Positions 16,268-58,363 of a stretch of 64,000 nt of DNA are shown here, piece by piece (within the stretch, counting starts at the first letter, position 1; every line of letters begins with the position of its first letter). Both the position numbers and the translations under genes were made by a program. This DNA comes from Alphaproteobacteria bacterium (lineage in GTDB: Bacteria > Pseudomonadota > Alphaproteobacteria > Rs-D84): the NCBI GenBank assembly GCA_017427405.1, contig JAFRSV010000011.1:8703-72702 (forward strand). Direction: 5' to 3'. A model generated the notes under the pieces. The model did not search any database. It saw only the letters and a list, made by a program, of their open reading frames with translations, and was not told the origin of the DNA.

Positions 16268-16272
16268 TTAAC

Positions 16273-16323: not shown

Positions 16324-16324
16324 C

Positions 16325-17072: not shown

Positions 17073-17110
17073 GTTTCTGGGGGGAAAAATAACCAATCGG
17101 TCGATATAAA

Positions 17111-17551: not shown

Positions 17552-17606
17552 TTTGACAATAGCATTTTTTTGAATAAAATGTCCCCAGAAACCAAAGGAT
17601 GCTTAT

Positions 17607-18116
17607 ATGGTTAAATCAATGGATAGGCATGCGCGCCAGGATGCGTGCGCCAAAAAGGTTATTGCGCGCGAACGCGCCCGCCAAGAAAAACGTAAAAATG
17701 GTTTGCCGCCATTTTTGGCGGTGTCTGGTTGGTTGCTTAAAATATTATCAAAGTCACAATATAATTATTTTCAAAATGACATTGATACAATTAAGTGCAG
17801 TTTCGCACTATATTGTGGTGAAAACAGCAATGCTATAAATCTGACGGGTATAATACATTCGCATCGCGTTGCCAAAATAATGATAGGGCATATAGTAAAA
17901 TATAACCCCGGTGTATTTGATAAAATGATTGAAAAACCAGACACGGTTACGGATCCGGAAACACAATCAAATATAATTGCGGGGCATTTAAAAGAACACC
18001 CTGGTGATGCCTATAAAGTCATCGAGAAATTTAAACGTGGTGAGATTGATCCGAAGGTTTATAATAAAGCGCTAAGATATACCGCTCGGTTAAATATTGC
18101 GGAAAAACGCAGATAA
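17607..18116 (+). CDS. Hypothetical protein
   Basis: 169-aa ORF followed by a terminator hairpin at 18119-18146. No motif recognised. Confidence 0.4.
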   Translation: MVKSMDRHARQDACAKKVIARERARQEKRKNGLPPFLAVSGWLLKILSKSQYNYFQNDIDTIKCSFALYCGENSNAINLTGIIHSHRVAKIMIGHIVKYNPGVFDKMIEKPDTVTDPETQSNIIAGHLKEHPGDAYKVIEKFKRGEIDPKVYNKALRYTARLNIAEKRR

Positions 18117-33700: not shown

Positions 33701-36700
33701 ATCACGTGGAACTATCCGGAAAGTGTGACCTTTACCGCAATTTGGGGTGGTGCGAATGAAAGGAATATAGATTACCGCAGAATTCCGGAAACCGATGCTA
33801 ACAATATTACAAATGCGGGAAATAAGTTAATTATGCCGGAATCTGGCATGCCGGAAAGTTTCACTTGTGGTGATGGAACAACACAGATCAATATCACCGG
33901 GCATCCACAACTTTACAATATGCATGGCGAGGTTGTTGGGGAATTAGTTGGCGACGTCACAGATTGGTGTGATACTGAAAATTCTGAAACCCATGAGTTA
34001 TCGGGTTGTTCCGAAACTCAAAGTTTTTCCAATAATTCGTGCAGTGATAAAGTTTTCTATGCGAAATGGCAATGCGCGGACGGTTATCATTTGAATGCCA
34101 CGGGTGATGACTGTATTACATGTGGGGCTGGTTATTATTGGAATAATGGTGATTGTGCCCCCTGCGAAAGTGGTTGGACCAGCAGGCCGCCATATAACTG
34201 GACCATAAATCAGTGTTATAAATTATGCGATGGCAGAAACGGAACCGCCGCAAAGACCTGTAGTGATAGTTTGACACCGACTTTATCAACCCTACCATAT
34301 TTTGCAAACAAGTTCTTGGATCAAGGTGACGACCCATACCAAATCACATTCTATGGTAATGATAATGCAGGCATTGATGTTTGCACAATGGACGAGGTTG
34401 CATATTGTCCCGCGGTGTTATCCGCCCTGGTGGCCAATACCCTTCCGGTTAACAAAACCAAGGCATCCACAATAACATTCAAGAAACAAGACCTTGCGGG
34501 TAATGCTGGAACCCGTTATCTTGTCGGATTTTTGGACATAAATGGCGACTATGTCCCCCAGAATGGTAAATTCTGGAGTCACATTGCAGGCCAGGGCCAG
34601 CAGATCACAGAGGGTTTCGATACTTATACAAAGATAATCTATCCGACAAATATAGCACCGGCGCCAAGTGATACCATAAACGATCCGTTGTTCACGGGAT
34701 ATTATGATGCGCAATCCGGTGGCAATCAACGTGTTGACGAAACACTTGGGTTGAGCAGTTCCAACGCGGTCGCATTTGCACAAAGTCCGTTATCCGCAAA
34801 CCAAGTCGGTTCCCGCACATTGTATCCGCAATATTGCGAAAATGGTGAAACATGGAACGGAAGCACCTGCACATCGCAGAGTTGGAATAATGTAAAATAT
34901 GTTTGTGGCAACCATGGAACGGAAGCTTCCGGATATAGCATGGAAAACACAGCAACATATAACGAACAGTATAAAGTTGCATATCAGACGTCTAACTTTA
35001 ATCAAATGATTGCATTTTGCGATGCCGATACAGGTTATGTATTTACTAATTGGAAATTAAACAATACTAATGGTTCGGTTGCACCATATAGTGGTAATAC
35101 CGGCGCTATCATCACATGGGATTTTACAACATTTAATCCGGCAAATACCCCAATCTTTACCGCACAATATGAATGCGATACGGATTATATTGCGAACGGT
35201 GATGTAAACAATGGAGGAACATGCGAACCTGTATCTGATGTTTGCAATGCCCAGTTACCAAATAACGCGAATGCACACATCATAGGTTGGAGTATGCCCG
35301 ACGGTACATGCATTTATACTATTCAATGTAATGCATGCATAAATTCCGATCCGGCAAATTACAGCTGTTATGTCCACGAAAATAGTGCATCTAACAATGG
35401 TCAATTTACGGTCACGGGTAATGGCACAGATGTTTTGGCAAATGCAATTTGTGCTCCGGCCGATTTCTGTGTCACATTAGATGATAATGGTGGCAGTGGT
35501 GGTATCGGCACCTTGTGTGAAACATATAATGTGGGGTGGCATAAATATGGCTCTGATTCGATTATATCAACCCTGAACCAATCAGATTTACCACAATGGG
35601 CTAATAACAGCCAAGTGTTTGCAGGGTACTGGACACTGGCAAGTGGTGGAAGCATGGAGATCGGTTCGGACGGAAACATTATTCCTGACCCTGTTGTGCT
35701 TACCGATAATAACCAAACTTGGCATGCCCATTGGGGCGATGGTACCGGATATACGGTTACGTTTAAATGCAATGGGGATACTGAATGGACCGATACCCAA
35801 ACGGTATACCCGCCACAGAACATAGATGTACCACAAACATCATGTTCGCGCACCGGCTATACGTTCACAAATTGGCAGGATACGACCAATAATGTCGTAA
35901 TTTCTGCAACCAATACAACATTCTTGTGGACTGGCGAATTTAATTCGGTTTTGACCCCAGATTGGACGGCGAATACATACGATGTGAAATATGTATGCAA
36001 CGGTGAGTCACAGACATTCCAGAATGGTGCAACATATGGTGTGAATTATGACGTAAAGAACCGCAGTGATCTTTCTATTGGTTGTACACCGCCGGCGGGT
36101 AAAGTTTTTGACAAGTGGGGATTAAGCAATAATGGGAGCACTGTCATAGAAACATACGCCGAAGGTGCACCGATTCATCCTTGGAATTACACAATTTCGG
36201 CACCAACCTTTACGGCACAATGGACGGATGGATGTTACAAAGTAACTTTCAATAATATCTTGTTTGGTGGACAAGATCCGGCAGGTGCTGCGGTAACGTT
36301 CTATAAAAAGGGCACAAACTGGTACGCATGGAATGATAGTTCATGCAGTTATCCGCAAACCCCAAATATTAGTTCATTACCAACTAAGACAAACGCAGAA
36401 TTTTCTGGGTACGATACCGATAACACAACCCCGGATGAAGTTCAGTTCGTGTTTGTGAGGTCGGGGTCTAATGCGGTGTTAACAACGTATGGTCAACAAT
36501 GGACTATTGATGATGATACAACATTATATGCGAAATACGTGTGTATTGATGGCTATACCCTTAACGGAACAACATGCGTCTTGGATTCTTCGAATTTCCA
36601 CACGATAACCCTTGACGAAAATGCCGGAGAATTTTATGGCGTAGCCAGTAATCCGAATGTTTTGTATACCATAGAGGGTATAACCCAAGCTTACACTGAT

Positions 36701-39700
36701 GAGGACCATAATAATCCATTCGATAGGTTGAACGAGAATGGTTTCCCCCGCAAATATGCCAAAGTGACATTCCATTTCTGCGATGGTGATGACAATTCTT
36801 GCGATCTCCCATCAACCCAAAATGTGATCAAAAACGCATATTTCACATTTGGTGGATTTTATGTGCAACATCCAGATGAATCAGATAGATATATATCTGC
36901 GGATGGATTTATTACCACGTTGGGGGGCAATGTGGCTGCTGGTCTGGCAAGTGATACAACCTGGTATGCGGTATGGAACGATTATGGTACGGTTGCTCAT
37001 TCCGATTGGCAATCCAATCCGACACCACCATCGGGCTACGCTTTTGTTGGTTGGTACACAGCAGCGAATTGTGGCGGTACTCAAGTTACTTCATCTTACC
37101 AATTTACCACCCCTGACACTGACCTTTATGCTTGTTGGTCACAGAATGTATTCACCGTCACATACGATTGCGGCACTGGTAACGGCGGCACTCAATCAGA
37201 TACACAAAGTCATCCGACCACTGGCAGTGCCTATACTGTTTTACCGAACGGAACCACAAATGGTGGTGTTGTGACTTGTAACCTTGACGGCCAGGGTTTC
37301 GCCGGGTGGAAATTTAGTCAAGACACTGGTGTAAACCCGTATAATGCTGGGGATACAATAATATGGCAGGTTGGTTATAGCAATGAAACCTTGACCGCCC
37401 AATACAGACGCTGTGAAACAAACGAAGTCCTTGTGAACGGCGTGTGTTATCCGGAATGCGAAGACAAAACATGTACGATACCGAACTCACAATATGACAA
37501 TGGGTGCCCGGATCATGATCCCCAGTATCCAAATGACGGATCAATGCATTGTACATACAGCGATCCAGCAATAGTGCAAGGTTATTATATTGATAACGAA
37601 CACACAACCTGCCTATATGCAAACGGAGCCAACCAAGGCAGTCCGATAAACGAGGGCTATTGCCCTGAAACACCGGTTTGTAACCCAGGTTATACTTGGA
37701 GTACAAATCCGTGGGGATGTATACCAGATCCAAACGCAACATATACTATACAATTCATCTGTGAACAGAACGGAACACCGATAACTACTCCCCAAACCGT
37801 GCACTATGGTGATTCTATAACCGTTCCGTCAAATTCGGTCTGCACGAATAACCCTGGGTATTCGTATAGTCAGTGGGAAGCCACACAATATAACAATCCA
37901 GCTACACTTCCTGCGCAGGGTACTACATATCAATATACATGGAACCAAACTCATGGTGAGACATTCATAGCAGATTGGAATAACCAAGGGGATATATTCA
38001 AAATGACCCTGAATCCAAGTGGTGGAAACCCGGGTTCGGACTTTATCGGAACGTTATGGGAACGGTACAACGACGGTTTCTATAGAAACAATGATGATGG
38101 AATTCTTTCCGATCTCGTTGAGATGTTTAATGCCAACCAATTACCAACATTTGAGGCAAATAATTTCAATGGATATAAAACGTCGGAAGGATATGATCGT
38201 GTAATATTCAATTCGATAACTGGTAAATGGGAACCAGTAGCTGCAGCTATATCAAGTAATGAAACTTGGTATGCCCAGTGGAACCCATGCGGAGATTATC
38301 AGTATTATGACAATGGTTGTCATGAATGCGAGCAGGAATATCATGAAAACATGCATCCATCTGTGCACACGGATTGCTATAAATCGTGTAACACATGTTC
38401 TGACCCGGTAACGTGTCCAGCAATGGGGCAACCTGGTGTTACTGGGTGCAATTATGACCATAATTCTAACAATTATAATGGGTACATATTCTGGCAGCCA
38501 ACACCGAATAACATTTGTTTAGATGTCAATCGTGATCCTATAATGTGTGACTACGAGGTAAATTGTGCTGATGGTTATTATCAGAGTTCTGACCACAAGA
38601 GTTGTATAGGAAACGATTACCAAATAACGTTGGATAGTCAGCATGGGGATATTTGTGGTGGTTCTTTTGCCGGGAACAATAGTAATCCGACAATCCTTTA
38701 CACACAATATGGGATTAACGGTAACATTTGGTTGAATTCGACGCATTCTGGTACCCCGATGTATCACGATGGAATATATGAACGTTTATATGCCAATCCG
38801 ACAAAGTCAGCCAGTGTGACCTTTAACGGAAATGGTGGCACAGTTATCGGTCAAACGTTCCAAACGGCAACCTTTGAATTTGGTGGTTTTTACCAGGTGC
38901 AAAACGGTGCTGGGGCCCAATACATAAATAATACAACTTCTGGAACATTTGGCGGACAACTTCAAGAGGCCGGATTAAACGCAGCCCGAACAATTATCGG
39001 TGTTCAAACATGGTATGCAAAATGGACTGGTGGTTCTATAACGCTGCCATCGGTGCAACGCGATGGTTATCCGTTCCTTGGGTGGTACAAGGGAACATAT
39101 GTGGGCGCCGAACGGGTGGGCGATGCCGGTGACCAATATACCCCAAGTTGTGCGAACGAAACACTATATGCCCAGTGGTCGTCAACGCCAAATTCGTATA
39201 ACATATCCTATCATGACGACAATGCTCAAACACCGTTGCACTTTAATGTGAACGCTAATAGTCATTGTTCTCCGACTTATTATCAATACGGCACGGGCGC
39301 ACAAATTAGTTGTAGTTTGGCACAGTTCGCGACCAACAACCCCAATTGGCATGTCGTGTTCAAAGGTTGGTGTACCAACGCAAATGGCACAGGGTGCAGC
39401 GTGACCAGTCCATACTTTGTCATAGGCCCAACGGAAATTGGTGATAAGGATTATTATGCTTTGTGGGATTGTGTGGATGGTTATCACGTTGATGATACTA
39501 CCCACACGTGCAAACCAAATACGATAAACTTGAATTATGTAACTCAATATGGTTCCGCACCGACGCAACCGTCAAGTTGCACATATGGCGAATCGTTTAA
39601 TCTGCCTGGGGCACTCACATATTCAGGGCAACAGTTCCAATATTGGCAAACTAACGGGGCGACCGGTTACAACCAGCACAATGGTGGCGCAGAAATCCAG

Positions 39701-42700
39701 TGTACACCACAATATCTTGGTGGAACGGGTGGGCATAATTCAACGGCAACAATTACCGCCGTGTGGCAATCTTGGAATACATTATGCCCAGCACACTTGC
39801 AAACAAGCCCCAATCCGCATGCGACCTTGTTGTCTAATCCTGCGCCGTATGTTAATGGGAATAACAAGTGTGTGTACACAATAAAGTGTAGTTCTTGTGT
39901 TGGGTCCAATTATTATGATTGTTACACCAACGGCGATAGTGCTAATAATAGTGGTATCTTTACATACGAAGGCAATATTAACGACAGTCATGCACTGGAT
40001 GGCGTGGTTTGTGATCCTGCGACATATACCGCTGTTTATAAATGCGGTGATGGAACACCAAATATTGAGTACTTGGATAATGAACATATTATAACATATG
40101 ATGGAACTTATTATGTATTGAATAACGTTATACCATGTCAGTCAACGAATGCACAATTTAATGGTTGGACATTTAATGGTAACCCAAGTTATGGTGTATA
40201 TACGGGGGGCACCCAAATTAGCCCATGGCGGTATCGTGGTATAACCCCGGTCTTTACCGCACACTATGGACAATGCGGTGCTGGTGAAGTACTTGTGGAT
40301 GGTGAATGTGAAACGGAATGTCGTGTAAGCTGCACATATCCAGGGGCACCTAACGCCAGTCCGATGAATCAACCGTGTCCAAGTGGAAATACCTATCCAG
40401 AGGGTACGACTTGCAATTATGATATCAATTCAAATCCGTCACAGGCCGGGTTTGCCCCTGAAACAGATCCAGACGCATGTCTTACGATCTCAAGGCCGCA
40501 TACCCAGATACAGGCGAATCCATGTGAAGTAAGCGTCGTCAACTGCCCGACATATTATACCTGGAATCCAGGCACAGGGCAATGTGAAGGAAAAACATTC
40601 CTTGTGAGGCTAGATCTAAATGATGGTGAACCTGGATCAAGCAATGTGAGCCAGATATTCGAACAATACGGTTATGGGTGGAGTAAAACCGAGAGTGATT
40701 TTGACCCATATTTGTACCTAGATCCGGAAACAGAATTGCCACATTGGCGTGATGAAACAAAGATCTTTAACGGTTTTTGGACTTCTTCAACTGGTGGCGC
40801 ATTAAGAATACAAGGTTCCGGCTTTGTCAGTGAAAATGGCGTTAATCCATTGTCGCCGATCACACTTACCAGCAATGGTCAAACATGGCATGCCCACTGG
40901 CGTGATAATGACGGTCCATTTACGGTTACGTTCAAATGCGATGAAAATAGTGCACCAATCAATGGATATAATCAAACAAATGTGACCTATAATTCATACA
41001 TAAATGTTCCGCCCAAATCAGAATGTGCGACAGATGGTTCCACATTTACCCAGTGGCGGGGGCGCAACCATGGTGTCGTGATTACGGCTGGGAATTATCC
41101 TACACAGTATCGATGGGCATACCACCATGGTGAAGAATTCATACCAGATACAATGGATGTATATCATGTTGAGTTACGTCCCGGAGACAACGCAATGAAT
41201 GGCAGTATTACCGAATTGTGGGAAGTGTACGGTTACAATTGGTACAAGAATTCCGATTTGACCAACGTTGTTACATCACTCAGTGGTTCTGAATTACCAA
41301 CACGTACGGGATACTCGTTTGCTGGATACGAAAATGAAAATGGGGAAGAAAGAGGGCGGTTTAATGGTAGTGCATGGCTGTCGCCATCTGCCACAACCAT
41401 AAATACTAATGAAATTTGGACCGCACAGTGGAGTGTTTGTGCTGCTGGTTACTATTACAACCAAGAAACTGGTGGGTGTAATCTTTGCCCAGATGGATAC
41501 GATCAGAATCCGCATGCGATTGGTCAAAACCAGTGTTATTTCTCTTGTTCGGAAGATTGTAATTGGAATGATCAAATAGCGGCGAGTTGCAGCATTCCGC
41601 ATGCGACTTCTTATGAACCAGATATGATAGCGTACCCAGGTAAACACTATTGGGGCTATAGTTATTGCAGTTTGGAGAGATGGGCACAGCCGCATCCGCA
41701 GGGGTCAATACCAAACTGTGATTGCATACCAACGGCATGTGAACCTGGTTATGTTTTAGTTGGCAGAATTTGTGTGGAAGATTCGCATTGGAAAATCGTA
41801 TTAAACTCGAATTCATTAAATGGCGAAAGCAGTTATCCAAGTGTTCTTTACACATGGCACAATCGTGGCGTGTATTTGACGGATGAATATACGGATCAAT
41901 ATCTTATGGAATATAACCGCCATCCGCTTTATCGCAAACCAACCAATTATGCCACTGTAGAATTTAACTTAAACGGTGCGGGTGCGACACTTGAATGGGG
42001 TGGACGTGTTTATAATTATCCAGCTACAATGAATCAGAGTGTCGATTTTAGATTCCGTGGGTTTTATGATACGGCCACAGGTATGTCACAGTATATAAAC
42101 AACCAAGGCGAGGGTTATATCACACCGGAGGGTAACAGTGAAGGCAAACGTGCCGAATATGATCAAACATGGTACGCCCACTGGCAGGCACAAGCCATGG
42201 CTCAACTTCCGGTACCAAGCCGACCAGGTTACCGTTTTGATGGGTGGTATGATTTACTTGGTAACCAGTTAACTGAAGGTACACTGATAGACGGAAACAA
42301 GATAGTGTATGCACGGTGGATTGATGACATAGTTACTGTTACATTAAATTCGTCGTCTTGTAATCCTTCTAATATACCGCTTGGTCAATTGTATCAGAAA
42401 TACAATGTTGGTTGGTCCAAGTCCCAGAACGGCGAATTTATGCCAAATCTGACCCTTGAACCGGAAGATCTACCAACACCAACCAATCAAGATTATATAT
42501 TCTTGGGGTATTATGATACACAGAATGGCCGTAATCAAGTGGTCACTTCCAACGGTACGGTTATCGCAAGACCCGAATACGAAGAGAACAAGACCTGGTA
42601 TGCGCGGTGCAATATAAATAATGGTCCATTTACGGTCACATTCAGATGTGATGAGAATAGTGTACCGGTTCAACCTTATACTGTAGATTATGGTGATAGA

Positions 42701-45700
42701 ATAGTGGCACCGACCGTGGATGAATCACATTGTCAAAATGAAGGTCAAACCTTTACTAGATGGAAGGCCATCAGACATCCCGCAATTACCATTCAGGCCG
42801 GTAATTCATACTATTGGGAACATCGTTTTGATGAAGATTTTACCCCAGATTGGACGGCTAATAACTATAATGTGAAATATGTATGCAATGGCGTAACCGT
42901 TGCAACAGACAGTGCAACATACGGTGCAACATATACTGTATTTAATCATAATAGTTTAAGTGGATGTACGGTGCCCGCGGGCAAAGAATTCGGCGGGTGG
43001 GGATTCAGCAATGACGGCATAACACCGTATTTGGGTGAATATTCTGACGGCGATCAATTCCCGTGGAACTACACGGTACCCAAACCAACATTTACGGCAA
43101 TATGGAGTAACTGCGGAATAGGCGAATACTGGGATGGGGAAAAATGCTATCCATGTCCAGAAGGTTTCCAAAACAACCCTAATGCAATCGGAATAGAACA
43201 GTGTTATGGTAATTGTTATTGGACCTGCCGGCCAGAGGGATGTCCAAGACCGCCATTGCCAGAAGGAATGTCTTCGTGCACATATGAACACGAAGGTGAA
43301 GAACAGCCTGGTATAATGTTTAATAATGGGTTGAACCAATGTTTACCCCAAGGTGAAACAAGTGTGCCATTGTGTAATAAAAACATAATTTGCGAAGAAG
43401 GTTACGATTTGTTCGGTGACGAATGTGTGGCAAGAAGTACATATACTATCATACTTGATTCTCGTATTATGGTTAATGGCGTGACTCAAGGAAATTCAGC
43501 GCGTCCGGCGATATTGTTCACGCGTTGGCATACTGGGGTATACAAAAATTCCTTGATGAGACCCGAAGACAAAATGACACCAACAAATAATCCGCTGAAT
43601 GATAATACACCAAGTAAATTCGTCAGGGTAACACTTGATGGTAATGGCGCGATATTTGCCTGGAATGGTACCGAAGGTCAACAGATAGTACAAAATATCC
43701 CACTTGATTTTGATGGTTTCTATGATGTTTCTGAAACTGACCCTGTAATAGGTAGAGATCGTTATATTACCACTTATGGTGATGCCGTTGGCCAGGCCGC
43801 TACTGCAGAACAAACATGGCATGCAATATGGGGTGAAGGTAATGTCCGTGTTCCGGTTATAAGTCGTGATGGTTATACTTTTGACGGTTGGTATACCGAA
43901 CGAGATGGAGGAACCCTTGTATCAAGGGGTGGTGATGTAAGTGTTTCACCAGATTATAACGTAACATGGTATGCACATTGGAGCATCGATCAAGATTATG
44001 TGACATATGACTGTGACGATGGTGATGGTGGCACCGGGGGTACTGGACAAGATACAGAACATCCTGTGCATTATAATGGGTCTTATACCGTCTTGCAGAA
44101 CATGATTGTGAACGGCGGGGTTGTTGATTGCCATAAGGATGCCGATGTATCCGCTGGAAGAAGATATCACGTGTTTGAAAATTGGACCCTCAATTTGAAT
44201 AACAGAAACTATCAACCTGGGTATCTATTCAATCCTTGGACTTTCACCGTCGATAACCCAACGTTCAATGCAAATTATAAAGAATGTCCAAATGGGTGGT
44301 ATTTTGACGGTTCGTGCAAACAGTGCCCATATGGCTATCCGTATTCCAACACAGATGCAACATTGCCACAGCATTGTTACAAGAATGATTGTGAACTTCC
44401 TTGTGCTCAGGTTTGCCCGCCGCGCGAAGCGCAAGAACCGGGTGTCCTTGGGTGTACTTACACCACGGTGAATTATACTGGCACGGAGTATTATGAAGGT
44501 TCCTGTAATGCCGCGGTCCAAAATTGTTCTTGGCGGGTTTGGTGCAATGAAGGCGCTGGTTATGTCTCTGATGCTAATGGTGAACATTGTGTAAGACAGG
44601 ATCAATATGAAATCACATTGGATCCAAATGGTGGTACGGTCGGTCAGGAAAAACTCTATACGATTCATAATACCGGGGTGTATTTGGATTCTGACCGGAC
44701 ACGGCAAATGAGTGCTTATAACAATTATTTGACCAATTTGCCACAGAAAAGTGCGGTTGCAACATTTGATTGTAATCCGGAATGCAGTGCTCCTGTGTCG
44801 CCTGTAAGTGTTGAACTGGCATTTAATGGATATTATGAAAGACAATCGGGTGGTGAAAAGTATATAAACAAATTTATGGACAATGGCGTTGCCAAGGGTG
44901 TCATTACCAGTGATGGTAATACAGCGGGCAAGGGCTATACCACTAATGCCACATGGTTTGCACAATGGTCGGAGGCATCAATCGGAAATTCGCGGTGGCC
45001 GGCCAATCCGACGCGTCCCGCCACGTCGTGTGGTGTGACATATGGATTTGTTGATTGGTATACCATGGCAAATGGTGGGACACCGGTTTCGTATAACACA
45101 CCGGTATCCGAAGATGTGACATGGTACGCCCATTGGTGCGAAAGTTGCCCGACCGGTGCAATAGCCAACGGTTCGTGCAGTGCGCCAAGTTGCAAGGCCA
45201 CATTTACGTGTAACGCCGGGTATTATTGGAACGCGGATGATTGCAGTTGCGTTCTGTCGCCAGATACAAGGTTCACATTGACGTATAAGCCAAACGGCGG
45301 AACACCAACACAGCCGAGAACACAAAGTTTGGCATACGGTGAAACGTTCACAACATTGGGTGGCGATACGTTTACCAAGAGTGGCGAAGTACTTTGCCGT
45401 TGGGATGAAGAAAATCACGCGTCATCCAATACATTCCCAGAGGCTGTTGCGGAACTTTCAACAGAATATACCTATCTCAATGAAGAAAATATAACGTTGT
45501 TGGCACGTTGGGCACAGTGTCAGTGCACCCAAGGTGCAGCAGGGGTCCAGGGTTGTTCTTTCTCGGTTGTGAATAATGCCTGTGTTCCGACTGTTACCTG
45601 TATGCCTGGGTACATTCCAAACGGAACACCGACATGTACCGGCGAATGCAATGCAACCTGTGATACATCCAATTCGTGCAGGCAATGCACAGCTGGCACA

Positions 45701-48700
45701 TATCAGGACGGCAATGAGTGTAAACCGTGTCCATCTGGCTTTACATCAAACGCCGGTGCGACATCATGTTATGGAAACACGATAACAATTGATTGGGATG
45801 AAAATGGTGGAAACCCGATTGATAATGGCAGTTGTCAGTATTGCATCAATGACAACAGTCAACCGGCATGGGCACAGTGCAACAGCGCAGATAACAATCT
45901 GACCTTGGCGAATGCACCGTCACATAGCAACTCTGCTATGCAATTCCTTAGGTGGAAATTGGCCAATGGTGACATTGGACTCGCGGGTGCATCCGTAATG
46001 TGTGACTTTACCCATGTTGGGGTGTATAGTGGAACAAGCACCGCAATTCAGGCACAATGGAACGAATGTAAGTGCAATTATCCATTGAATCCGCATGTGG
46101 CGTGGTGTCAGGCATGGTTTGCAGACGGCGAATGTAAGTATATGAATGGATGTGATGCCGGATACGAATCTGATCCGTTAACGGTGTATACCCCGGTTGC
46201 GGTATGTAATCCGAAAAATTATAATATAACATATAATTGCGGCGTTGGCGCAACCGGCACACCGTTAATTTCCGCGGATACGGCCACATATGATGATACA
46301 TATATCGTAAAGAATGCGGGTGGGGTAAATTGTCAAAAGGTCGGTTTTAATTTTGTTGGTTGGTTATTCGATGGTGACAATTACTTGCACCAGGCGGACG
46401 ACCGTATCACATGGACATATACATCTAATAAAACCTTTACCGCACAATACAGTCAATGCGCGGCGGGTGAAGTATGGGTAGATGGCGCGTGCAAACCATG
46501 TACTTGCTCACAGGATAATTGGAGTTCTGGTGTCGCATCATGTACGGCAAGTCCATCGTCGATTAGCACCTGTTCTGCGGTTGTCACTTGTGACACTGGT
46601 TATAATAATCCGCAAGGGAATTGCAATGGTGCGACATGTTCGGCCCAGTGTGACCAGATTCAATCCAATGCCATTTATGAATGCGGAATTGGCGCAACAG
46701 GTCCTGCGCCGGCCACGGAAACGATGAACTATGGTGCGACACACACGGTCAAAGGCCAGGCAAGTTGCGCCAAATCTGGTTACACCTTTAACGGTTGGAA
46801 CTTTACTGGGACAAATGAAAATTATAACCCCGGCGCAACGGTTCAATGGAATTATGAAACGAATCAAACCTTTACAGGTAATTGGTGCGAAAATTGTGTT
46901 CAACCTGATCATGGGGAATGTTCCTTGAATGCGGGTGTTGCCGGAATGTGTTCATACAATTGTAATTGTAATTCTGGTTATACACTTGTTGGGGGTGTAT
47001 GTACCGCGTACCCGGTATGCGAACCTGATGATTCATTAACAATCACATACCGTCCAAATGGTGGTATGAATAATGGCGTCCTTGGGCAACCGGTGATACA
47101 AAATGTCACATACGGTGCCGGGTTTATAACCAAACCGGGAACCATATTTACCAAGAAAAACAGTATTATCACCGCATGGGATCATGTCGAAGGTGGCGAT
47201 TATCCAGAATTGAATCGTTGGTATGTATACAATACCGATATTGACACCATATTGAACGCACATTGGGAACAGTGCACATGCGCCACAGGCAACGGCGTGT
47301 CATCTTGTACAACAAGTTCTACAAGTGAAAATGCTTGCGCCTGCGCGGGTGAATGTGCTGCTCGTTACATAAACGGCGGTTGTAGTTGCAACGGAACAAG
47401 TACCTGCACACAAACTTGTACGGAATGTCCGGCCGGGTACATATCCAACGCAGATCAAACAGAATGTGTTATTTGTCCAGAAAACACGTATCAATCGGGC
47501 AATACTTGCGAACCGTGTCCAACTGGCTACACATCGCCGGCGGGTTCGACATCAATTGACGCATGCTATGATAATCCGATTCCTTATACGGTGCACTATT
47601 CGTCAAACAATGGTTTGGATCAAACGGAAACTCAACCTGTCACATATGGGGCAACATTTACAACCCTTGGCGGAACGACATTCACGTATGATAACCACAT
47701 CATGACCCGTTGGAATAAAATAAGTGGCGGTGACTATACAGAATTGTCGCACCCATACGAATACGGTGTCCAAGAAGATACGTTCCTAAAGGCACAATGG
47801 GCACAATGTACATGTGCCACGGGCAATGGGGTGTCATCTTGTACAACAAATTCTACAAGTGAAAATGCTTGCGCTTGCACGGGCGAATGCGCCGCGGGTT
47901 ATGTAAAGGGTGAGTGTTCTTGCTCTGGAAATACATGCACGCAATCTTGCACAAAGTGCGCGGATAATCAGGTTGAAATAAACGGTGTTTGTGTTGATTG
48001 CTCTTGTTCGGCCGATGGTAATGGGGTTGTTTCGGGATGTGGATTTGTATCAAACGAAAATAACGTTTGCAATTGGGGAACAACAACTTGCGATACCGGA
48101 TACAACAATCCTGGGGATCTTGTCTGCACGGATCTTGTACATAACAATAATTGCACAGCAACATGTACCTTGGGTGGTTCGAACGCAGTTTATAAATGTG
48201 GTACCGGAATTGGTGCGGGGTACAGCACATATGTAAACTATGGCGCAACACACACAATCCTGACGAATGCGTTTGTTGGATGTTACCGTGATAATTCAAC
48301 GTTCGCGGGTTGGGCATTCAATGGCGATAACACCATATACTTTGATAATGTTGGTGCAACGGTCGCATGGAATTATACAACTGACAAGGAATTTGAAGCA
48401 AAATGGTGTTCAAATTGTCCTGTTGTTGAACATGGAACCAACCTGTTGACCATCCCAGAACCGGGTTATTGTCGTTGCGATTTGACATGCGATACGGGGT
48501 ATCATGTGGAAAATGGCGCATGTGAACCGAATGTTTATCCGAATGAAAACGGTATCACATACAAACCAAATGGTGGAACACCAAATCAGAATTATACGCA
48601 ATCCGTGACATATGATGCACCGTTCACAACGCTTGATTGGAGTGTGGAACATTATACCAAGGCGCACCATATCTTAACACGTTGGGCTGTTGAATCCGGT

Positions 48701-49876
48701 GGCGTGGGAACATTCGATGGTGGTTATGCCGCCCGTGGTACGGAATACACATATCATACGGACGGCGCAACGGTACTTGCCGCGGATTGGACCGAATGTG
48801 CGACCGATGAAATATCATTGAACAATACCTGTCGCCAATGCGGTTGTGCAACCGGTACGGGTGCGGCATCATGCGGAACACTGTCAACCGATGATGATAC
48901 ATGCACATGGGGGCCGGTAAGTTGCCAAACCGGTTATGTGACCCCGGTATTGGATTGTTCAAATGATACCACAAATTGCACCGCATCTTGCACCGCATGT
49001 GGTACCACACAGGTCGAAGTTAATGGCACTTGTACAGATTGCGAATGCAGTAAGGGCAATAATGGTGCTGGTGTCATTTCGGGATGTGTATTTGCATCGA
49101 ACAATGGCAATACCTGCAACTGGAATCCGACGACGTGCAAACTTGGGTATGGTAATCCGAATCTGACCTGTGATGATTCTGGGTACAACAATAATTGCAC
49201 CGCATCGTGCACGATATGTGATGCGGGATACTATGGTCCGGATGGTCTTGAATGTATACAATGTCCGGACGGTTATACATCCTTGGCCGGCGCAACATCA
49301 ATAAGGGAATGCTTTATTGATCCGAACAGTTGCGGGCCGGATGAACACATCGAACACGGCGAATGTGTAAACAATACGCGTGCATGTTCCATCCCGAATG
49401 CAACCAGTGCGGCCCGCATTTGGAATCCTGCAATCGGAACATACGGCCCATGCACGGTTGTGGAATGCGATACAGCCAACGGATATCACGAATCCGGCAA
49501 CGCATGTGTCCGGGATACTTGCGTCGTTGCACACGGCAGTGCCGAAAGCGAATATAGCGGTGGCCAATGGGAATGCTTTGTGACAAAGTGTGATCCGGGT
49601 TATGAACCAAGTTCGGATTATAAGTCCTGTGTTGAATGTGCAAATCGTTATGTTGATGGCGATATCGCGGTCAGCAGTTATGTATCTGAATGCGAAATCG
49701 CCGCATGTATGTACCAAGGTCAAAAGTACACATTAGAAGGAAACGAATGTGTTCCGATTTGTACCGCGGATAGGTTTACCCGTGAAGATCCGAGCAATCC
49801 AACTGGTACAATACAATGGGATGAACGTACCAAGAAATGTATCCGAACCTGTAAGCCGGGATATAAAATGTGGTAA
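27743..49876 (+). CDS. Giant (7377-aa) secreted or surface Cys-rich repeat protein: Listeria-Bacteroides (InlB B-repeat/Flg_new)-like units plus ephrin-receptor-like (GCC2/GCC3) Cys motifs
   Basis: Uninterrupted 22,134-nt ORF. Signal peptide MKKFAKILGFLGFFVTLATAQIGTAWA. Recurrent (V/I)TF..NGG ... GY(T/A)F.GW(Y/S) ... LYA(Q/K/H)W units, for example 35750-35960 and 43864-43982. C..CP.G(T/Y)Y......C.PCP.G(F/Y)TS.AGATS..C motifs at 45677, 47465 and 49208. Confidence 0.85.
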   Translation: MKKFAKILGFLGFFVTLATAQIGTAWADGAYCGYGYDGYYGLGRDEDDCAKCMEDFPNYPNSTGMYNFSGDLCYSACSGTCTDRNAYFQSGGTYGVPAGSLFFVYGFGSRTQNSLLNISGLTCGNIGDYCAEIFDCGKSTCSANWKTINFVDHNNTTLGTLYIVYNKIWSTQQTTECDNCTGDGRNYAVFYPVFQTPTAPSREGYTFLGYSNQQTGDNITMPAQSHHGETLYYVSLNYNNATTVSGISGNTITLYARYSHDGCEANYWYNSQTEECVPCADGFTSPGGYLGQESCTTECHVNCTEAHDPSNDCVLPAVGHYSHITFSGTEYEIGIPSQGIEAEKCYDENNNEITNPSNNSAYWCPWSCDGCEPAGCYDLVGGECVAKKFIATYKCDGQSSYTFQDPTSGKPTYNEVYDLFDVTASGGPGACNPQSNSGQSFAGWVLDIDSNQTLRTYPDSFEWKWCKDGNFNAAWTDSCYEVSFDDDTNGGHPSGYPNLTPGTHTSFYKKYNDTAWYSDSKCSDKIEIGSGVNQVNVIGHLPGKEHATFTGYYDETQNPDLKIFAGDNDTLQGVLTNDGASWTITGNTVLYAQYTCVEGYAPNASGDCVDDQIDVKYTCVSPVDGEPDTYTFNDDATYGAAYPVKPVGTGNYNVPCAFTGYELDNDYVWKLQDYSGNPNNPNGEYGPGADAGNTLLSTDWQYITTTPLTEIEFILNKNLWNLKTYTVEYRCGSIKPDADVYTDSSATYGQTYNIAGQFDPVGGSNVTVQDFLDNNCKPDGGFGAWTFQNWTFTCHGANTGPYVTNDPSFGTWIYDHDDCYFTANWAQTDFEIILDSNISDGYISSGNNGPSLDSDPDKLYTRWREGVYIRLPRNNANMMTSNANNIENPKKYYALTINGGTAGGTTNGTFSWNGVDNLTSTIETVQLTFTGFYDADTTNNPRPYIGTDGHITSEGNDKGISYDGTGATPYTWYAHWTNNSGSITLPTPDDITGYDFGGWICVDGENNEIYNTTANPNQSLTVTISENITCTAQWVVACRTVTFNENGGTPNAQYGTYDTRSKVVGNPIWYTNSTCGGGILVPNVSNNIPTRGEHEHFVGYNTASDGTGDEIFDEDGVLVDSNWTITQNATLYAQYACDEPYHINPQTGECEVCPSGTFYNPTNPNPSSNLCDSCDTYIHDHAREWDEAWALDYTWSSNPPYTWSVDQCYRECRGEDSNEVDTCDIFQLTSTDINNRMEQFLPDGLINTGGDTGKQISFFGNQRVNINTCNPQSGIKYCPVGLLGDAAIATVKPIAASVDFHIDPDNSPEETKSVYIVGGRNPSMANGLVLQTGYAWSQVRGPGQNSPEVNHVVDGQPITFNYIHIIYPAEAPQAVSPACSTFTGYGFPQNHPEVSTFGRNLTTANASDIINYAQTANSAEMSPIVNDTNSRNLYAQYDTGAQYNYSYNCNCSGDGCGGSAPSGGTICAGADFTPATNTCTKGNCTFLGWSTNPGATVPETLPTTWTYTSNQVFYAIWGNCSAPTANIEYYSGNTLFGQVPLTVTPTNSTIYGTLQLPTVPAIDQNMPATYNCDGATFNIPQQVQYVINNNTYSGVPVFIDPETSQPIGEVVKWCTDPDLETGCYLPYELNPANCNDVKLYAQWKCAQGYMLQDNRCVRCQDDYIWNSTTQQCEPATTGCPNGFPHTKTGYNWGTDQCYRICGSQSGDTRTDCRMTTDIPSGHGFEQFLTGTQAEKQISFYGNEHDGIYTCQESTGAAYCPLGLLNGVNIYSAHKPMSASVKFNGTEDQNIERYIIGNRNSQANNISLGDGFAWSHVVGRGQQGSVIEGANTYRYTFITYPTDTAPTAVSREHYTFLGYGYPEDDPEITPILANLALTTGSSGNAASIISYANSHTGDSNMSPVINEHRNLYAQYTADDTYTLTYSCGDGGGQAPAQQSGIYAGQPNIPISTPTGCNSYATNLLSKWKVTGTDNSTSYDDVSASTQNITWNYPESVTFTAIWGGANERNIDYRRIPETDANNITNAGNKLIMPESGMPESFTCGDGTTQINITGHPQLYNMHGEVVGELVGDVTDWCDTENSETHELSGCSETQSFSNNSCSDKVFYAKWQCADGYHLNATGDDCITCGAGYYWNNGDCAPCESGWTSRPPYNWTINQCYKLCDGRNGTAAKTCSDSLTPTLSTLPYFANKFLDQGDDPYQITFYGNDNAGIDVCTMDEVAYCPAVLSALVANTLPVNKTKASTITFKKQDLAGNAGTRYLVGFLDINGDYVPQNGKFWSHIAGQGQQITEGFDTYTKIIYPTNIAPAPSDTINDPLFTGYYDAQSGGNQRVDETLGLSSSNAVAFAQSPLSANQVGSRTLYPQYCENGETWNGSTCTSQSWNNVKYVCGNHGTEASGYSMENTATYNEQYKVAYQTSNFNQMIAFCDADTGYVFTNWKLNNTNGSVAPYSGNTGAIITWDFTTFNPANTPIFTAQYECDTDYIANGDVNNGGTCEPVSDVCNAQLPNNANAHIIGWSMPDGTCIYTIQCNACINSDPANYSCYVHENSASNNGQFTVTGNGTDVLANAICAPADFCVTLDDNGGSGGIGTLCETYNVGWHKYGSDSIISTLNQSDLPQWANNSQVFAGYWTLASGGSMEIGSDGNIIPDPVVLTDNNQTWHAHWGDGTGYTVTFKCNGDTEWTDTQTVYPPQNIDVPQTSCSRTGYTFTNWQDTTNNVVISATNTTFLWTGEFNSVLTPDWTANTYDVKYVCNGESQTFQNGATYGVNYDVKNRSDLSIGCTPPAGKVFDKWGLSNNGSTVIETYAEGAPIHPWNYTISAPTFTAQWTDGCYKVTFNNILFGGQDPAGAAVTFYKKGTNWYAWNDSSCSYPQTPNISSLPTKTNAEFSGYDTDNTTPDEVQFVFVRSGSNAVLTTYGQQWTIDDDTTLYAKYVCIDGYTLNGTTCVLDSSNFHTITLDENAGEFYGVASNPNVLYTIEGITQAYTDEDHNNPFDRLNENGFPRKYAKVTFHFCDGDDNSCDLPSTQNVIKNAYFTFGGFYVQHPDESDRYISADGFITTLGGNVAAGLASDTTWYAVWNDYGTVAHSDWQSNPTPPSGYAFVGWYTAANCGGTQVTSSYQFTTPDTDLYACWSQNVFTVTYDCGTGNGGTQSDTQSHPTTGSAYTVLPNGTTNGGVVTCNLDGQGFAGWKFSQDTGVNPYNAGDTIIWQVGYSNETLTAQYRRCETNEVLVNGVCYPECEDKTCTIPNSQYDNGCPDHDPQYPNDGSMHCTYSDPAIVQGYYIDNEHTTCLYANGANQGSPINEGYCPETPVCNPGYTWSTNPWGCIPDPNATYTIQFICEQNGTPITTPQTVHYGDSITVPSNSVCTNNPGYSYSQWEATQYNNPATLPAQGTTYQYTWNQTHGETFIADWNNQGDIFKMTLNPSGGNPGSDFIGTLWERYNDGFYRNNDDGILSDLVEMFNANQLPTFEANNFNGYKTSEGYDRVIFNSITGKWEPVAAAISSNETWYAQWNPCGDYQYYDNGCHECEQEYHENMHPSVHTDCYKSCNTCSDPVTCPAMGQPGVTGCNYDHNSNNYNGYIFWQPTPNNICLDVNRDPIMCDYEVNCADGYYQSSDHKSCIGNDYQITLDSQHGDICGGSFAGNNSNPTILYTQYGINGNIWLNSTHSGTPMYHDGIYERLYANPTKSASVTFNGNGGTVIGQTFQTATFEFGGFYQVQNGAGAQYINNTTSGTFGGQLQEAGLNAARTIIGVQTWYAKWTGGSITLPSVQRDGYPFLGWYKGTYVGAERVGDAGDQYTPSCANETLYAQWSSTPNSYNISYHDDNAQTPLHFNVNANSHCSPTYYQYGTGAQISCSLAQFATNNPNWHVVFKGWCTNANGTGCSVTSPYFVIGPTEIGDKDYYALWDCVDGYHVDDTTHTCKPNTINLNYVTQYGSAPTQPSSCTYGESFNLPGALTYSGQQFQYWQTNGATGYNQHNGGAEIQCTPQYLGGTGGHNSTATITAVWQSWNTLCPAHLQTSPNPHATLLSNPAPYVNGNNKCVYTIKCSSCVGSNYYDCYTNGDSANNSGIFTYEGNINDSHALDGVVCDPATYTAVYKCGDGTPNIEYLDNEHIITYDGTYYVLNNVIPCQSTNAQFNGWTFNGNPSYGVYTGGTQISPWRYRGITPVFTAHYGQCGAGEVLVDGECETECRVSCTYPGAPNASPMNQPCPSGNTYPEGTTCNYDINSNPSQAGFAPETDPDACLTISRPHTQIQANPCEVSVVNCPTYYTWNPGTGQCEGKTFLVRLDLNDGEPGSSNVSQIFEQYGYGWSKTESDFDPYLYLDPETELPHWRDETKIFNGFWTSSTGGALRIQGSGFVSENGVNPLSPITLTSNGQTWHAHWRDNDGPFTVTFKCDENSAPINGYNQTNVTYNSYINVPPKSECATDGSTFTQWRGRNHGVVITAGNYPTQYRWAYHHGEEFIPDTMDVYHVELRPGDNAMNGSITELWEVYGYNWYKNSDLTNVVTSLSGSELPTRTGYSFAGYENENGEERGRFNGSAWLSPSATTINTNEIWTAQWSVCAAGYYYNQETGGCNLCPDGYDQNPHAIGQNQCYFSCSEDCNWNDQIAASCSIPHATSYEPDMIAYPGKHYWGYSYCSLERWAQPHPQGSIPNCDCIPTACEPGYVLVGRICVEDSHWKIVLNSNSLNGESSYPSVLYTWHNRGVYLTDEYTDQYLMEYNRHPLYRKPTNYATVEFNLNGAGATLEWGGRVYNYPATMNQSVDFRFRGFYDTATGMSQYINNQGEGYITPEGNSEGKRAEYDQTWYAHWQAQAMAQLPVPSRPGYRFDGWYDLLGNQLTEGTLIDGNKIVYARWIDDIVTVTLNSSSCNPSNIPLGQLYQKYNVGWSKSQNGEFMPNLTLEPEDLPTPTNQDYIFLGYYDTQNGRNQVVTSNGTVIARPEYEENKTWYARCNINNGPFTVTFRCDENSVPVQPYTVDYGDRIVAPTVDESHCQNEGQTFTRWKAIRHPAITIQAGNSYYWEHRFDEDFTPDWTANNYNVKYVCNGVTVATDSATYGATYTVFNHNSLSGCTVPAGKEFGGWGFSNDGITPYLGEYSDGDQFPWNYTVPKPTFTAIWSNCGIGEYWDGEKCYPCPEGFQNNPNAIGIEQCYGNCYWTCRPEGCPRPPLPEGMSSCTYEHEGEEQPGIMFNNGLNQCLPQGETSVPLCNKNIICEEGYDLFGDECVARSTYTIILDSRIMVNGVTQGNSARPAILFTRWHTGVYKNSLMRPEDKMTPTNNPLNDNTPSKFVRVTLDGNGAIFAWNGTEGQQIVQNIPLDFDGFYDVSETDPVIGRDRYITTYGDAVGQAATAEQTWHAIWGEGNVRVPVISRDGYTFDGWYTERDGGTLVSRGGDVSVSPDYNVTWYAHWSIDQDYVTYDCDDGDGGTGGTGQDTEHPVHYNGSYTVLQNMIVNGGVVDCHKDADVSAGRRYHVFENWTLNLNNRNYQPGYLFNPWTFTVDNPTFNANYKECPNGWYFDGSCKQCPYGYPYSNTDATLPQHCYKNDCELPCAQVCPPREAQEPGVLGCTYTTVNYTGTEYYEGSCNAAVQNCSWRVWCNEGAGYVSDANGEHCVRQDQYEITLDPNGGTVGQEKLYTIHNTGVYLDSDRTRQMSAYNNYLTNLPQKSAVATFDCNPECSAPVSPVSVELAFNGYYERQSGGEKYINKFMDNGVAKGVITSDGNTAGKGYTTNATWFAQWSEASIGNSRWPANPTRPATSCGVTYGFVDWYTMANGGTPVSYNTPVSEDVTWYAHWCESCPTGAIANGSCSAPSCKATFTCNAGYYWNADDCSCVLSPDTRFTLTYKPNGGTPTQPRTQSLAYGETFTTLGGDTFTKSGEVLCRWDEENHASSNTFPEAVAELSTEYTYLNEENITLLARWAQCQCTQGAAGVQGCSFSVVNNACVPTVTCMPGYIPNGTPTCTGECNATCDTSNSCRQCTAGTYQDGNECKPCPSGFTSNAGATSCYGNTITIDWDENGGNPIDNGSCQYCINDNSQPAWAQCNSADNNLTLANAPSHSNSAMQFLRWKLANGDIGLAGASVMCDFTHVGVYSGTSTAIQAQWNECKCNYPLNPHVAWCQAWFADGECKYMNGCDAGYESDPLTVYTPVAVCNPKNYNITYNCGVGATGTPLISADTATYDDTYIVKNAGGVNCQKVGFNFVGWLFDGDNYLHQADDRITWTYTSNKTFTAQYSQCAAGEVWVDGACKPCTCSQDNWSSGVASCTASPSSISTCSAVVTCDTGYNNPQGNCNGATCSAQCDQIQSNAIYECGIGATGPAPATETMNYGATHTVKGQASCAKSGYTFNGWNFTGTNENYNPGATVQWNYETNQTFTGNWCENCVQPDHGECSLNAGVAGMCSYNCNCNSGYTLVGGVCTAYPVCEPDDSLTITYRPNGGMNNGVLGQPVIQNVTYGAGFITKPGTIFTKKNSIITAWDHVEGGDYPELNRWYVYNTDIDTILNAHWEQCTCATGNGVSSCTTSSTSENACACAGECAARYINGGCSCNGTSTCTQTCTECPAGYISNADQTECVICPENTYQSGNTCEPCPTGYTSPAGSTSIDACYDNPIPYTVHYSSNNGLDQTETQPVTYGATFTTLGGTTFTYDNHIMTRWNKISGGDYTELSHPYEYGVQEDTFLKAQWAQCTCATGNGVSSCTTNSTSENACACTGECAAGYVKGECSCSGNTCTQSCTKCADNQVEINGVCVDCSCSADGNGVVSGCGFVSNENNVCNWGTTTCDTGYNNPGDLVCTDLVHNNNCTATCTLGGSNAVYKCGTGIGAGYSTYVNYGATHTILTNAFVGCYRDNSTFAGWAFNGDNTIYFDNVGATVAWNYTTDKEFEAKWCSNCPVVEHGTNLLTIPEPGYCRCDLTCDTGYHVENGACEPNVYPNENGITYKPNGGTPNQNYTQSVTYDAPFTTLDWSVEHYTKAHHILTRWAVESGGVGTFDGGYAARGTEYTYHTDGATVLAADWTECATDEISLNNTCRQCGCATGTGAASCGTLSTDDDTCTWGPVSCQTGYVTPVLDCSNDTTNCTASCTACGTTQVEVNGTCTDCECSKGNNGAGVISGCVFASNNGNTCNWNPTTCKLGYGNPNLTCDDSGYNNNCTASCTICDAGYYGPDGLECIQCPDGYTSLAGATSIRECFIDPNSCGPDEHIEHGECVNNTRACSIPNATSAARIWNPAIGTYGPCTVVECDTANGYHESGNACVRDTCVVAHGSAESEYSGGQWECFVTKCDPGYEPSSDYKSCVECANRYVDGDIAVSSYVSECEIAACMYQGQKYTLEGNECVPICTADRFTREDPSNPTGTIQWDERTKKCIRTCKPGYKMW

Positions 49877-57519: not shown

Positions 57520-57637
57520 AAATAAAATCTTAACAAATTCGCTTTACGCGAATTTTTTGATTTTAATATAATTTTCCCCATTGAAAAACATGGCGCGTTT
57601 CCTATATAATATAATGTCAGAGCCAAGAGGTGTCACC

Positions 57638-58363
57638 ATGATGAATCAAAATTCTAAACCACAAATCACTGAAATCATAAACGCAATGCAATCGCCCACC
57701 AAATGGAACACATATAAAATGACCCAGGCCCGTAGAATCGCCGGCAAAATAGAAAAAACAAAATCAGAACAATTTGCGGAATACGTTGATGGTGTTTTTA
57801 TGTCGGTTTGCGAAGAATTAAATGTCTTTGATATGGCACGCGATTGGGCGAAAAAATCGGCCCCCGAAAAATTGGCTGTGGCGGGCAACATTATCAAACG
57901 TTTTGTTGAACGCGTACAATCGGACACCCAAACAGGTCGTGCGAAAAAGTATAACGATAAAGTGGTGGAATCCGTTCCAAAAATTTCCGTGTCGCACGTG
58001 ACCGACGGTCAAATGTCGGTATCACAGCGGGGCATGGTCAATGTGAACCCAAATTTTCGGTATTATGATAATTTGATAAATTTTCTTATGGACCTGCGTC
58101 ACGAAAGCACCCATATCGTTGACATGTTTTTCCCGTCAATTAGTCCACTTGATACGAATATTCGTGACCTTTCGATGGCGTTTTATATAAATCCACGCGA
58201 AGATATGAATTTATACAAACAAAATCCATTGGAATTAAACGCGAATATGCGCCGTCGCGAATTTGGTAATAAATTACAGGAAAAAATCACGCTATGCGAA
58301 TATGTGCGGGTGCAAAGGTTGGTTGGCAATGCGGTTGCACGCGGAATTCCACGGGGGCGTTAA
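57638..58363 (+). CDS. Hypothetical protein with HExxH motif (possible zinc metallopeptidase)
   Basis: ATG at 57638 after RBS AAGAGG. LRHESTHIVD contains HESTH. No signal peptide. The stop overlaps the next ATG (TAATG). Confidence 0.4.
   Translation: MMNQNSKPQITEIINAMQSPTKWNTYKMTQARRIAGKIEKTKSEQFAEYVDGVFMSVCEELNVFDMARDWAKKSAPEKLAVAGNIIKRFVERVQSDTQTGRAKKYNDKVVESVPKISVSHVTDGQMSVSQRGMVNVNPNFRYYDNLINFLMDLRHESTHIVDMFFPSISPLDTNIRDLSMAFYINPREDMNLYKQNPLELNANMRRREFGNKLQEKITLCEYVRVQRLVGNAVARGIPRGR

Follow-up and report, generated by a model that had tools for sequence, protein, structure and literature searches.

Ephrin-receptor-like cysteine-rich units in a giant Flg_new repeat protein of an uncultured gut alphaproteobacterium

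The window analyzed here is a stretch of 64,000 nucleotides from contig JAFRSV010000011.1 (positions 8,703 to 72,702 of the forward strand). It contains a giant open reading frame (ORF; 27743..49876, + strand) that encodes a protein of 7,377 amino acids in one reading frame. By reading, the N-terminus of this protein is a Sec-type signal peptide, MKKFAKILGFLGFFVTLATAQIGTAWA. Cysteine accounts for 357 residues (4.8%) of the whole protein and for 9–12% of its last 1,500 residues. [quoted passage not shown] All four segments lie where that note placed them, in frame 0 of 27743..49876, with the quoted peptides mapping to aa 5979–6010, aa 6575–6609, and aa 7156–7191 and the half motif to aa 276–299. 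We call the three C-terminal units, which fall in the last fifth of the ORF, m1, m2, and m3, and consider here what they are, where they came from, and what they may do.

Each of the three units was scanned alone against Pfam, where the gathering cut-off of PF07699 is 23.1 bits. The best Ephrin_rec_like unit, m2 (aa 6574–6611, 47462..47575, + strand; ECVICPENTYQSGNTCEPCPTGYTSPAGSTSIDACYDN), passed with 37.0 bits (E = 2.9e-9) and aligned with profile positions 1–48 of 48. The m3 unit (aa 7155–7193, 49205..49321, + strand), which directly precedes a conserved C-terminal tail, scored 23.1 bits, equal to the cut-off and just sufficient. The m1 unit (aa 5978–6012, 45674..45778, + strand; SCRQCTAGTYQDGNECKPCPSGFTSNAGATSCYGN) stayed below the Pfam threshold; it was used as seed of our family profile and aligns with the paralogous cysteine-rich linkers described below. 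Given the Pfam scores, the alignment of their cysteines to solved members, and the neighbors of the structural models, we accept m2 and m3 as members of Ephrin_rec_like, and m1 is a sub-threshold paralogue. The family identity given in the earlier note was upheld for m2 and m3 and fell short for m1. Weak, overlapping matches to related cysteine-rich families were all sub-threshold: m2 scored 31.0 bits against ELAPOR1 TNFR-like (PF23091; cut-off 33.2) and 26.0 bits against NCD3G (PF07562; cut-off 38.9), Giardia VSP (PF03302; cut-off 31.4) gave 18.6 and 15.7 bits, and cEGF was also matched. Membership in TNFR_c6, PF23091, or PF07562 was not found at the cut-off of any of these families. A Pfam scan of the whole protein at E ≤ 1 returned no Ephrin_lbd, fn3, transmembrane segment, tyrosine kinase, or SAM domain, and homology to Eph receptors was rejected on the absence of Ephrin_lbd, fn3, and kinase.

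The motif had been thought to be confined to the last ~1,450 residues, and this did not hold. A fourth full copy, a divergent 'NPPYNW' variant, lies at aa 2123–2159 (34109..34219, + strand; DCITCGAGYYWNNGDCAPCESGWTSRPPYNWTINQCY) and was detected by regular expression and by the family profile, with no Pfam match. The family profile also recovered three other divergent copies: aa 5121–5157 (43103..43213, + strand; 34.1 bits, from outside the profile seed, no Pfam match), aa 4562–4600 (41426..41542, + strand; 14.0 bits, with a sub-threshold PF07699 score of 16.3 bits), and aa 5513–5548 (44279..44386, + strand; 10.9 bits, no Pfam match). The N-terminal half motif, correctly located in the earlier note, gave no match when scanned alone against PF07699; it is contained in a stretch that qualifies, at most, as a degenerate full unit (aa 263–295, 28529..28627, + strand), for which the family profile score of 5.7 bits is not significant alone and which has no Pfam match. 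Another half unit, CTECPAGYISNAD (aa 6557–6571), precedes m2. The full double-CxxC regular expression matched four times, compared with 0.006 matches expected from 500 shuffles of the protein, and the half pattern CxxCxxG[YFW] matched 11 times, compared with 0.2 expected from shuffles. The m2 unit is nearly identical in two orthologue fragments (P0001 and P0002) and one further locus (L083), with a single substitution in the CVIC…CP core. A chance or low-complexity source of the motif was rejected by the shuffles together with its conservation in relatives and paralogous linkers.

The nine copies from which we built a family profile (A2) came from the window and from two fragments of orthologues. 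Searched against PDB sequences, the profile matched the GCC2/GCC3 region of thyroglobulin (residues 1456–1495, E = 1e-7) and the Chlamydomonas mastigoneme protein Mst1 (residues 1283–1320, E = 1.2e-5), the PDB entry of which is named 'ephrin type A/B receptor-like domain-containing protein'. Both of these regions have a cysteine opposite each of the five cysteine columns of the profile. An AlphaFold2 model of the 109-aa linker that carries m2, made from an alignment of 16 paralogues and orthologues, was confident and consisted entirely of beta-hairpins, with a predicted local distance difference test score (pLDDT) of 86.7 overall and 93–96 over m2. Its best Foldseek neighbors were OX40 (TNFR), Mst1 (probability 0.99–1.0, TMq 0.44), the cysteine-rich domain (CRD) of EphA2 (probability 0.89, TMq 0.38), ELAPOR1 (58 columns at 2.9 Å), and the CRDs of CaSR and the sweet receptor. 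In a model of the last 328 residues, m3 had a pLDDT of 86–89; the Foldseek neighbors were of the same class, and the shape of the model, a drawn-out rod of several domains, accounts for the weakness of the matches. The predicted fold of the linker is consistent with the stacked beta-hairpin class and does not prove it. Overall, we regard the segments as true Ephrin_rec_like (GCC2/GCC3) units or close derivatives of such units. This class of small beta-hairpin domains, rich in disulfides, sits within the wider TNFR, furin-like, and growth-factor-receptor cysteine-rich group.

The InlB-type repeats that had been reported in the same polypeptide were confirmed. Flg_new (PF09479; Listeria-Bacteroides or InlB B-repeat) scored 54.2 bits in one half of the protein and 121 bits in the other (cut-off 27), and a family-tuned hidden Markov model (HMM) counted ~41 units. 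An HMM seeded on Firmicutes found only three units in the giant protein, and iteration on its own family was needed to reach ~41. The cysteines fall almost wholly in the gaps between Flg_new units. Within these gaps, the Ephrin-like units form the C-terminal parts of cysteine-rich linkers and usually adjoin a Flg_new unit, directly after or before it, and they are scattered in this way along the whole protein at the repeat boundaries. The linker with m2 (aa 6506–6614, 47258..47584, + strand) has 16 cysteines and is made up of an unclassified CxC...GxGVxSC module, the half unit, and then m2; its cysteine columns do not vary among the 16 aligned paralogues and orthologues. Its N-terminal module (CxC..GxGVxSC..NxC..CxxGYxN..C) belongs to no Pfam family and is predicted to be of the same hairpin-stack type. 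A 142-nt direct repeat (47255..47396 as the reference and 47789–47930, + strand; 80% identity, 534 nt apart), matched at the protein level by paralogy between aa 6506–6560 and aa 6684–6754, records an internal duplication in which a module composed of Flg_new and a cysteine-rich linker was copied.

The pattern of this N-terminal module of the linker, W..C.C..G.GV.SC....N.C....C..GY.N...C, recurs many times in the protein (window 47258–47410 and, for example, aa 5921–5977, 6684–6754, and 7015–7100). The predicted structure is a beta-hairpin stack with a pLDDT of 74–91, and it may represent an undescribed type of cysteine-rich module.

Immediately after m3, the protein ends in a conserved cysteine-rich tail of ~185 residues (aa 7194–7377, 49322..49873, + strand; ending in ...KCIRTCKPGYKMW) that belongs to no Pfam family. 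The tail of relatives ends in ...RTCxPGYKMW and has about 40 invariant columns. Among GTDB species representatives, 136 loci were confirmed to carry it, with two copies on some contigs, and nearly all of these loci come from metagenome-assembled genomes (MAGs) of gut or rumen Alphaproteobacteria or Candidatus Enterousia. We consider the tail a lineage-specific candidate anchor or sorting domain. This Enterousia-type tail was also found on contigs that had been placed in Clostridia, Muribaculaceae, and Bacteroides fragilis bins (L123, L148, and L150); these are more likely mis-binned alphaproteobacterial contigs than true occurrences. At least one Ephrin-like unit was found in the last ~1,200 residues of about a quarter of the tail-bearing ORFs (23/81), and a unit directly ahead of the tail, like m3, in 12/81. 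The sequence of the copy just ahead of the tail is strongly conserved among close relatives, with no hypervariability. The 7,377-aa window protein is the longest member seen among the tail-bearing relatives.

A word-indexed search with the last 1,465 residues returned 16 matching proteins. Among these are the C-terminal orthologue fragments P0001 (60% identical), P0002 (76%), and P0003 (31%, with a precomputed PF07699 assignment), all of which keep the motifs, while the other matches share chiefly the ~185-aa tail. Searches of the same kind with short motif alignments gave only one match and four matches, respectively. Two long proteins, P0066 (5,970 aa) and P0036 (6,302 aa), have the N-terminal signal sequence in common with the window protein, carry copies of the motif as well, and are likely its orthologues; the closest relative of the copy at aa 2123–2159 is in P0036.

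Relatives of the gene were also found at the same chromosomal position. The gene for P0004 (2,495 aa), a protein that carries motif units, is fully syntenic with the window gene and occupies a slot that reads Obg, Lon, TsaB, (GNAT), PIF1-type helicase, giant gene, MlaE/F/D with auxiliary lipoprotein, RNase G, and LPG-synthase-like protein. P0012 (2,140 aa) has only the upstream neighbors in common, and no copy of the motif was found in it by regular expression. At the window locus (19539–55938; compare L095 and L097), an MFS gene and tRNA-Met are also present ahead of the giant gene. Across the shared locus, the gene product ranges from 2,140 to 7,377 aa; the locus looks conserved in the lineage, with a gene that has expanded from about 2 k to 7.4 k residues.

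The upstream neighbors in the window encode PBP, RNase PH, RecG, Obg, Lon, TsaB, a PIF1-type helicase, an MFS transporter, and tRNA-Met, whereas those downstream encode MlaE/F/D and an auxiliary lipoprotein, RNase G, an LPG-synthase-like membrane protein, an amidase, and AccA/D. These flanking genes are the ordinary housekeeping set of a diderm bacterium. RNase G is 93–94% identical to that of uncultured ruminant-gut alphaproteobacterial MAGs and 87–89% identical to that of further MAGs, one of them Candidatus Enterousia sp.; the source is an uncultured gut or rumen alphaproteobacterium of the Candidatus Enterousia type. The G+C content (GC) along the giant gene is 0.42–0.47, inside the span of the whole window (0.38–0.50), and its composition is uniform. 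Elsewhere in the window, two stretches (8001–10000 and 16001–18000) have a GC of 0.38–0.39 compared with ~0.45 and lie near tRNA-His (8853–8929) and tRNA-Arg (16764–16840); they could be intergenic or mobile DNA. Three other ORFs, 11466–12512 (+ strand, 348 aa), 12660–13904 (− strand, 414 aa), and 57581–58363 (+ strand, 260 aa), had no Pfam match at E ≤ 1e-5.

We also surveyed the occurrence of the units in other organisms. An exhaustive profile search of 1.84 billion representative proteins (E ≤ 1e-3) retrieved 2,679 proteins. Several of the matches with the top total scores are eukaryotic proteins with dozens of repeats, from Mya arenaria (labeled SCUBE-like or PCSK5-like by their sources), Solemya, Intoshia, Sinanodonta, and Mastigamoeba, indicating that the profile detects the eukaryotic family. 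The top match of the search, ahead of every eukaryotic protein, was P0018 (3,792 aa, 51 stretches). P0018 and P0165, metagenome entries for a bacterial protein of 3,792–3,917 aa on contigs of ~60 kb, start with a pilin-type N-terminus (GFTLIEII) and carry Flg_new repeats along with some 51 stretches of Ephrin_rec_like type. Flg_new was found in at least 20 of the 147 best profile matches. The combination of N_methyl, Flg_new, and Ephrin_rec_like was above the Pfam cut-offs in P0058, P0088, P0133, P0101, and P0032, of which P0101 is 100% identical to a protein in a human-gut 'Clostridium sp.' MAG. Cut-offs were also exceeded for Flg_new and Ephrin_rec_like in P0047 (172.6 bits) and for Big_2 and Ephrin_rec_like in P0146. 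The pairing of Flg_new with Ephrin_rec_like is recurrent in gut bacteria, and the earlier view that a combination with InlB-type repeats is unusual was not supported by this survey. No paper tying Ephrin_rec_like to Listeria-Bacteroides repeats was found in a literature search.

A degenerate DNA pattern for CPxGYTSxAGxTS, searched in GTDB genomes, was found at 13 loci. Three of them passed the PF07699 cut-off, in a Bacilli MAG (45.6 bits), an Anaerolinea MAG (34.6 bits), and an unclassified bacterium (25.5 bits), while in three Polyangia/Myxococcales MAGs (L086, L088, and L089) the peptide was matched but no complete Ephrin-like unit was present. At one locus (L087:6536–7999; Anaerolinea MAG CAYWXS010000075.1), an ALK/LTK glycine-rich domain (PF12810, 67 bits) accompanies Ephrin_rec_like, and both of these domains are usually deemed eukaryotic. 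The description of Ephrin_rec_like as characteristic of eukaryotes is apt in that the domain is annotated mainly there, but too narrow in that the PF07699 cut-off is passed in Bacilli, Anaerolinea, and gut Firmicutes-type proteins. Outside their own family, the best pairwise scores of m1, m2, and m3 were 113, 114, and 109 against pilin or Flg_new bacterial proteins compared with 90, 102, and 90 against named eukaryotes, from a module of 38 aa that carries little phylogenetic signal. The bacterial copies score higher even though 98 eukaryotic units and 61 bacterial units were compared.

The reading that best fits these findings, which we hold with a probability of roughly 0.65, is that the segments are genuine Ephrin_rec_like-class units that serve as structural spacers and stem from a bacterial pool rather than from recent eukaryotic acquisition. 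By analogy with proteins of known function, a structural spacer in a secreted surface protein is the most likely role. The CRD of Eph receptors is a rigid connector. In Mst1, a disulfide ladder with a spacing of about 11 Å makes the filament robust (PMC10602792). In the giant protein, periplasmic oxidation after Sec export would lock each unit into such a disulfide ladder, and because of this locking the linkers would become stiff, protease-resistant rod segments. The rods could in turn keep the Flg_new units apart and extend them outward in a very long adhesin or fibril, and the conserved tail may anchor or sort the protein. The units would have been drawn from a bacterial pool common to gut Firmicutes proteins of the Flg_new and Ephrin_rec_like design and then multiplied within the lineage, probably by internal duplication of modules.

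Several observations weigh against this interpretation. The m1 unit fails the PF07699 cut-off at 16.7 bits, and a scan of the whole protein (C-terminal half) gave 22.1 bits (E = 1.3e-4) over three stretches, just under the cut-off. The mid-protein copies are all under it as well; among those at aa 2123, 4562, 5121, and 5513, PF07699 detected only aa 4562–4600. Nothing in the Foldseek search against PDB reached E ≤ 1e-3, with a best E of 0.05 and TM-scores of 0.3–0.47. A secretion partner was sought beside the giant gene and at the loci of its relatives and none was found, the neighbors being the Mla operon, the MFS transporter, and the PIF1 helicase. The eukaryotic set behind the pairwise comparison consists of seven named proteins, and most of the 127 other top matches carry no domain-of-life assignment. 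The main functional rival to the spacer role counts on the same side: the modules may be the ligand-binding part of the protein, as an adhesin tip or receptor-binding sites, rather than passive spacers. TNFR-type CRDs bind ligands in eukaryotes, m3 adjoins the conserved tail in a subset of relatives, and the copies vary between orthologues. However, the spread of the units over the whole protein at repeat boundaries, and the high conservation, with no hypervariability, of the copy ahead of the tail among close relatives, make a ligand-binding function unlikely in our view.

With respect to origin, the earlier note had suggested capture from a eukaryotic host. Under this explanation, modules taken up recently from the host or a co-resident protist would mimic the host and engage host or protist surface molecules. 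The family is indeed annotated overwhelmingly in eukaryotes, and a published survey describes the domain as having 'emerged in ancient eukaryotes' and reads one actinobacterial occurrence as horizontal transfer (PMC6993872); many of the matches with the highest total scores are metazoan or amoebozoan, and the organism inhabits animal guts. Nevertheless, recent capture is disfavored since the nearest neighbors of m1–m3 outside the family are bacterial Flg_new/pilin proteins and not the named eukaryotes, no compositional anomaly was found along the gene with its GC in the range of the window, and the copies recur in the syntenic relative and in many related, tail-sharing species. Firmicutes proteins have the same architecture, some copies are old enough to have diverged past Pfam recognition, and Pfam showed no accompanying Ephrin_lbd, fn3, or kinase domain. 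We therefore judge recent capture very improbable, whereas an ancient transfer between domains of life, in either direction, may have taken place. The likeness could also be convergent, with an unrelated disulfide-knotted scaffold mimicking the CxxCPxG...CxxCPxG pattern. The modules are short (about 38 aa) and rich in Cys, Gly, and Pro, the structural matches are not statistically significant, and weak scores are spread over several related Pfam families (ELAPOR1 TNFR-like, NCD3G, VSP, and cEGF). Homology is favored over convergence by the conserved non-cysteine positions (G, Y, P, TS, AG.TS) that align to thyroglobulin and Mst1. In addition, the m2 match spans the full 48-position Pfam model at 37 bits, and a profile made solely from bacterial copies retrieves many proteins in which PF07699 is found on independent scanning. 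We consider convergence improbable.

Taken as genuine bacterial units, the Ephrin-like segments of the giant protein are a real and fairly ordinary building block, and no new mechanism is revealed by them, as the domain, the repeats, and the probable function as a spacer all belong to kinds already known. What is corrected is the view of the domain as eukaryote-only: in at least two phyla of gut bacteria it recurs as a component of very large surface proteins, where it stands beside Listeria-Bacteroides repeats. The analysis also defines a large, fast-evolving family of surface proteins in the poorly known Alphaproteobacteria of gut and rumen (Candidatus Enterousia and relatives). Given the two relatives at the same chromosomal position and the unique shared C-terminal domain, this giant family is a natural candidate for attachment to host or particles. 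A bolder proposal, which we consider doubtful, is that Ephrin_rec_like includes an old, self-sustaining bacterial subfamily that moves with Flg_new between gut Firmicutes and Alphaproteobacteria, and that the Enterousia giant protein, with its lineage-specific tail, may be a disulfide-laddered surface fiber for attachment to host epithelium or gut protists. If this were true, 'emerged in ancient eukaryotes' would not be the whole account of the domain, and bacteria-to-eukaryote or repeated transfer may have occurred.

Compared with PF07699 as known from thyroglobulin (~1456–1510) and Mst1, the window units have the same five-cysteine CxxCPxGxY...CxxCPxG..S..G..S...C arrangement, tandem and overlapping, and a probable extracellular context like theirs; the predicted beta-hairpin ladder fold is consistent with that of these proteins. 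They differ in belonging to a bacterial protein, in that several copies have passed beyond Pfam recognition, in standing singly or as 1.5 units within larger unclassified cysteine-rich linkers instead of in long arrays, and in a distinctive G[YF]TSxAG[AS]TS signature. The likeness to Eph receptors lies in the CRD of EphA2, which is among the best structural neighbors of the linker model; the window protein is not an Eph homologue, lacking the ephrin-binding domain, fn3, transmembrane segment, kinase, and SAM domain. The pilin-type proteins of gut bacteria (P0018, P0032, P0058, P0088, P0101, and P0133) likewise combine Listeria-Bacteroides repeats with Ephrin_rec_like and are the closest relatives of m1–m3 outside the family. 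In contrast to the Sec signal peptide of the window protein, they have an N-terminal methylation (pilin-like) motif; they are 700–3,800 aa long, do not have the PGYKMW tail, and come from another phylum. The Enterousia-type giants (P0001–P0014, P0033, P0036, P0044, P0066, and P0137; L098–L177) share with the window protein the type of signal peptide, Flg_new, the cysteine-rich linkers, and the tail; the window protein exceeds them all in length, and the Ephrin-like units near the C-terminus are a feature that it shares with about a quarter of these relatives.

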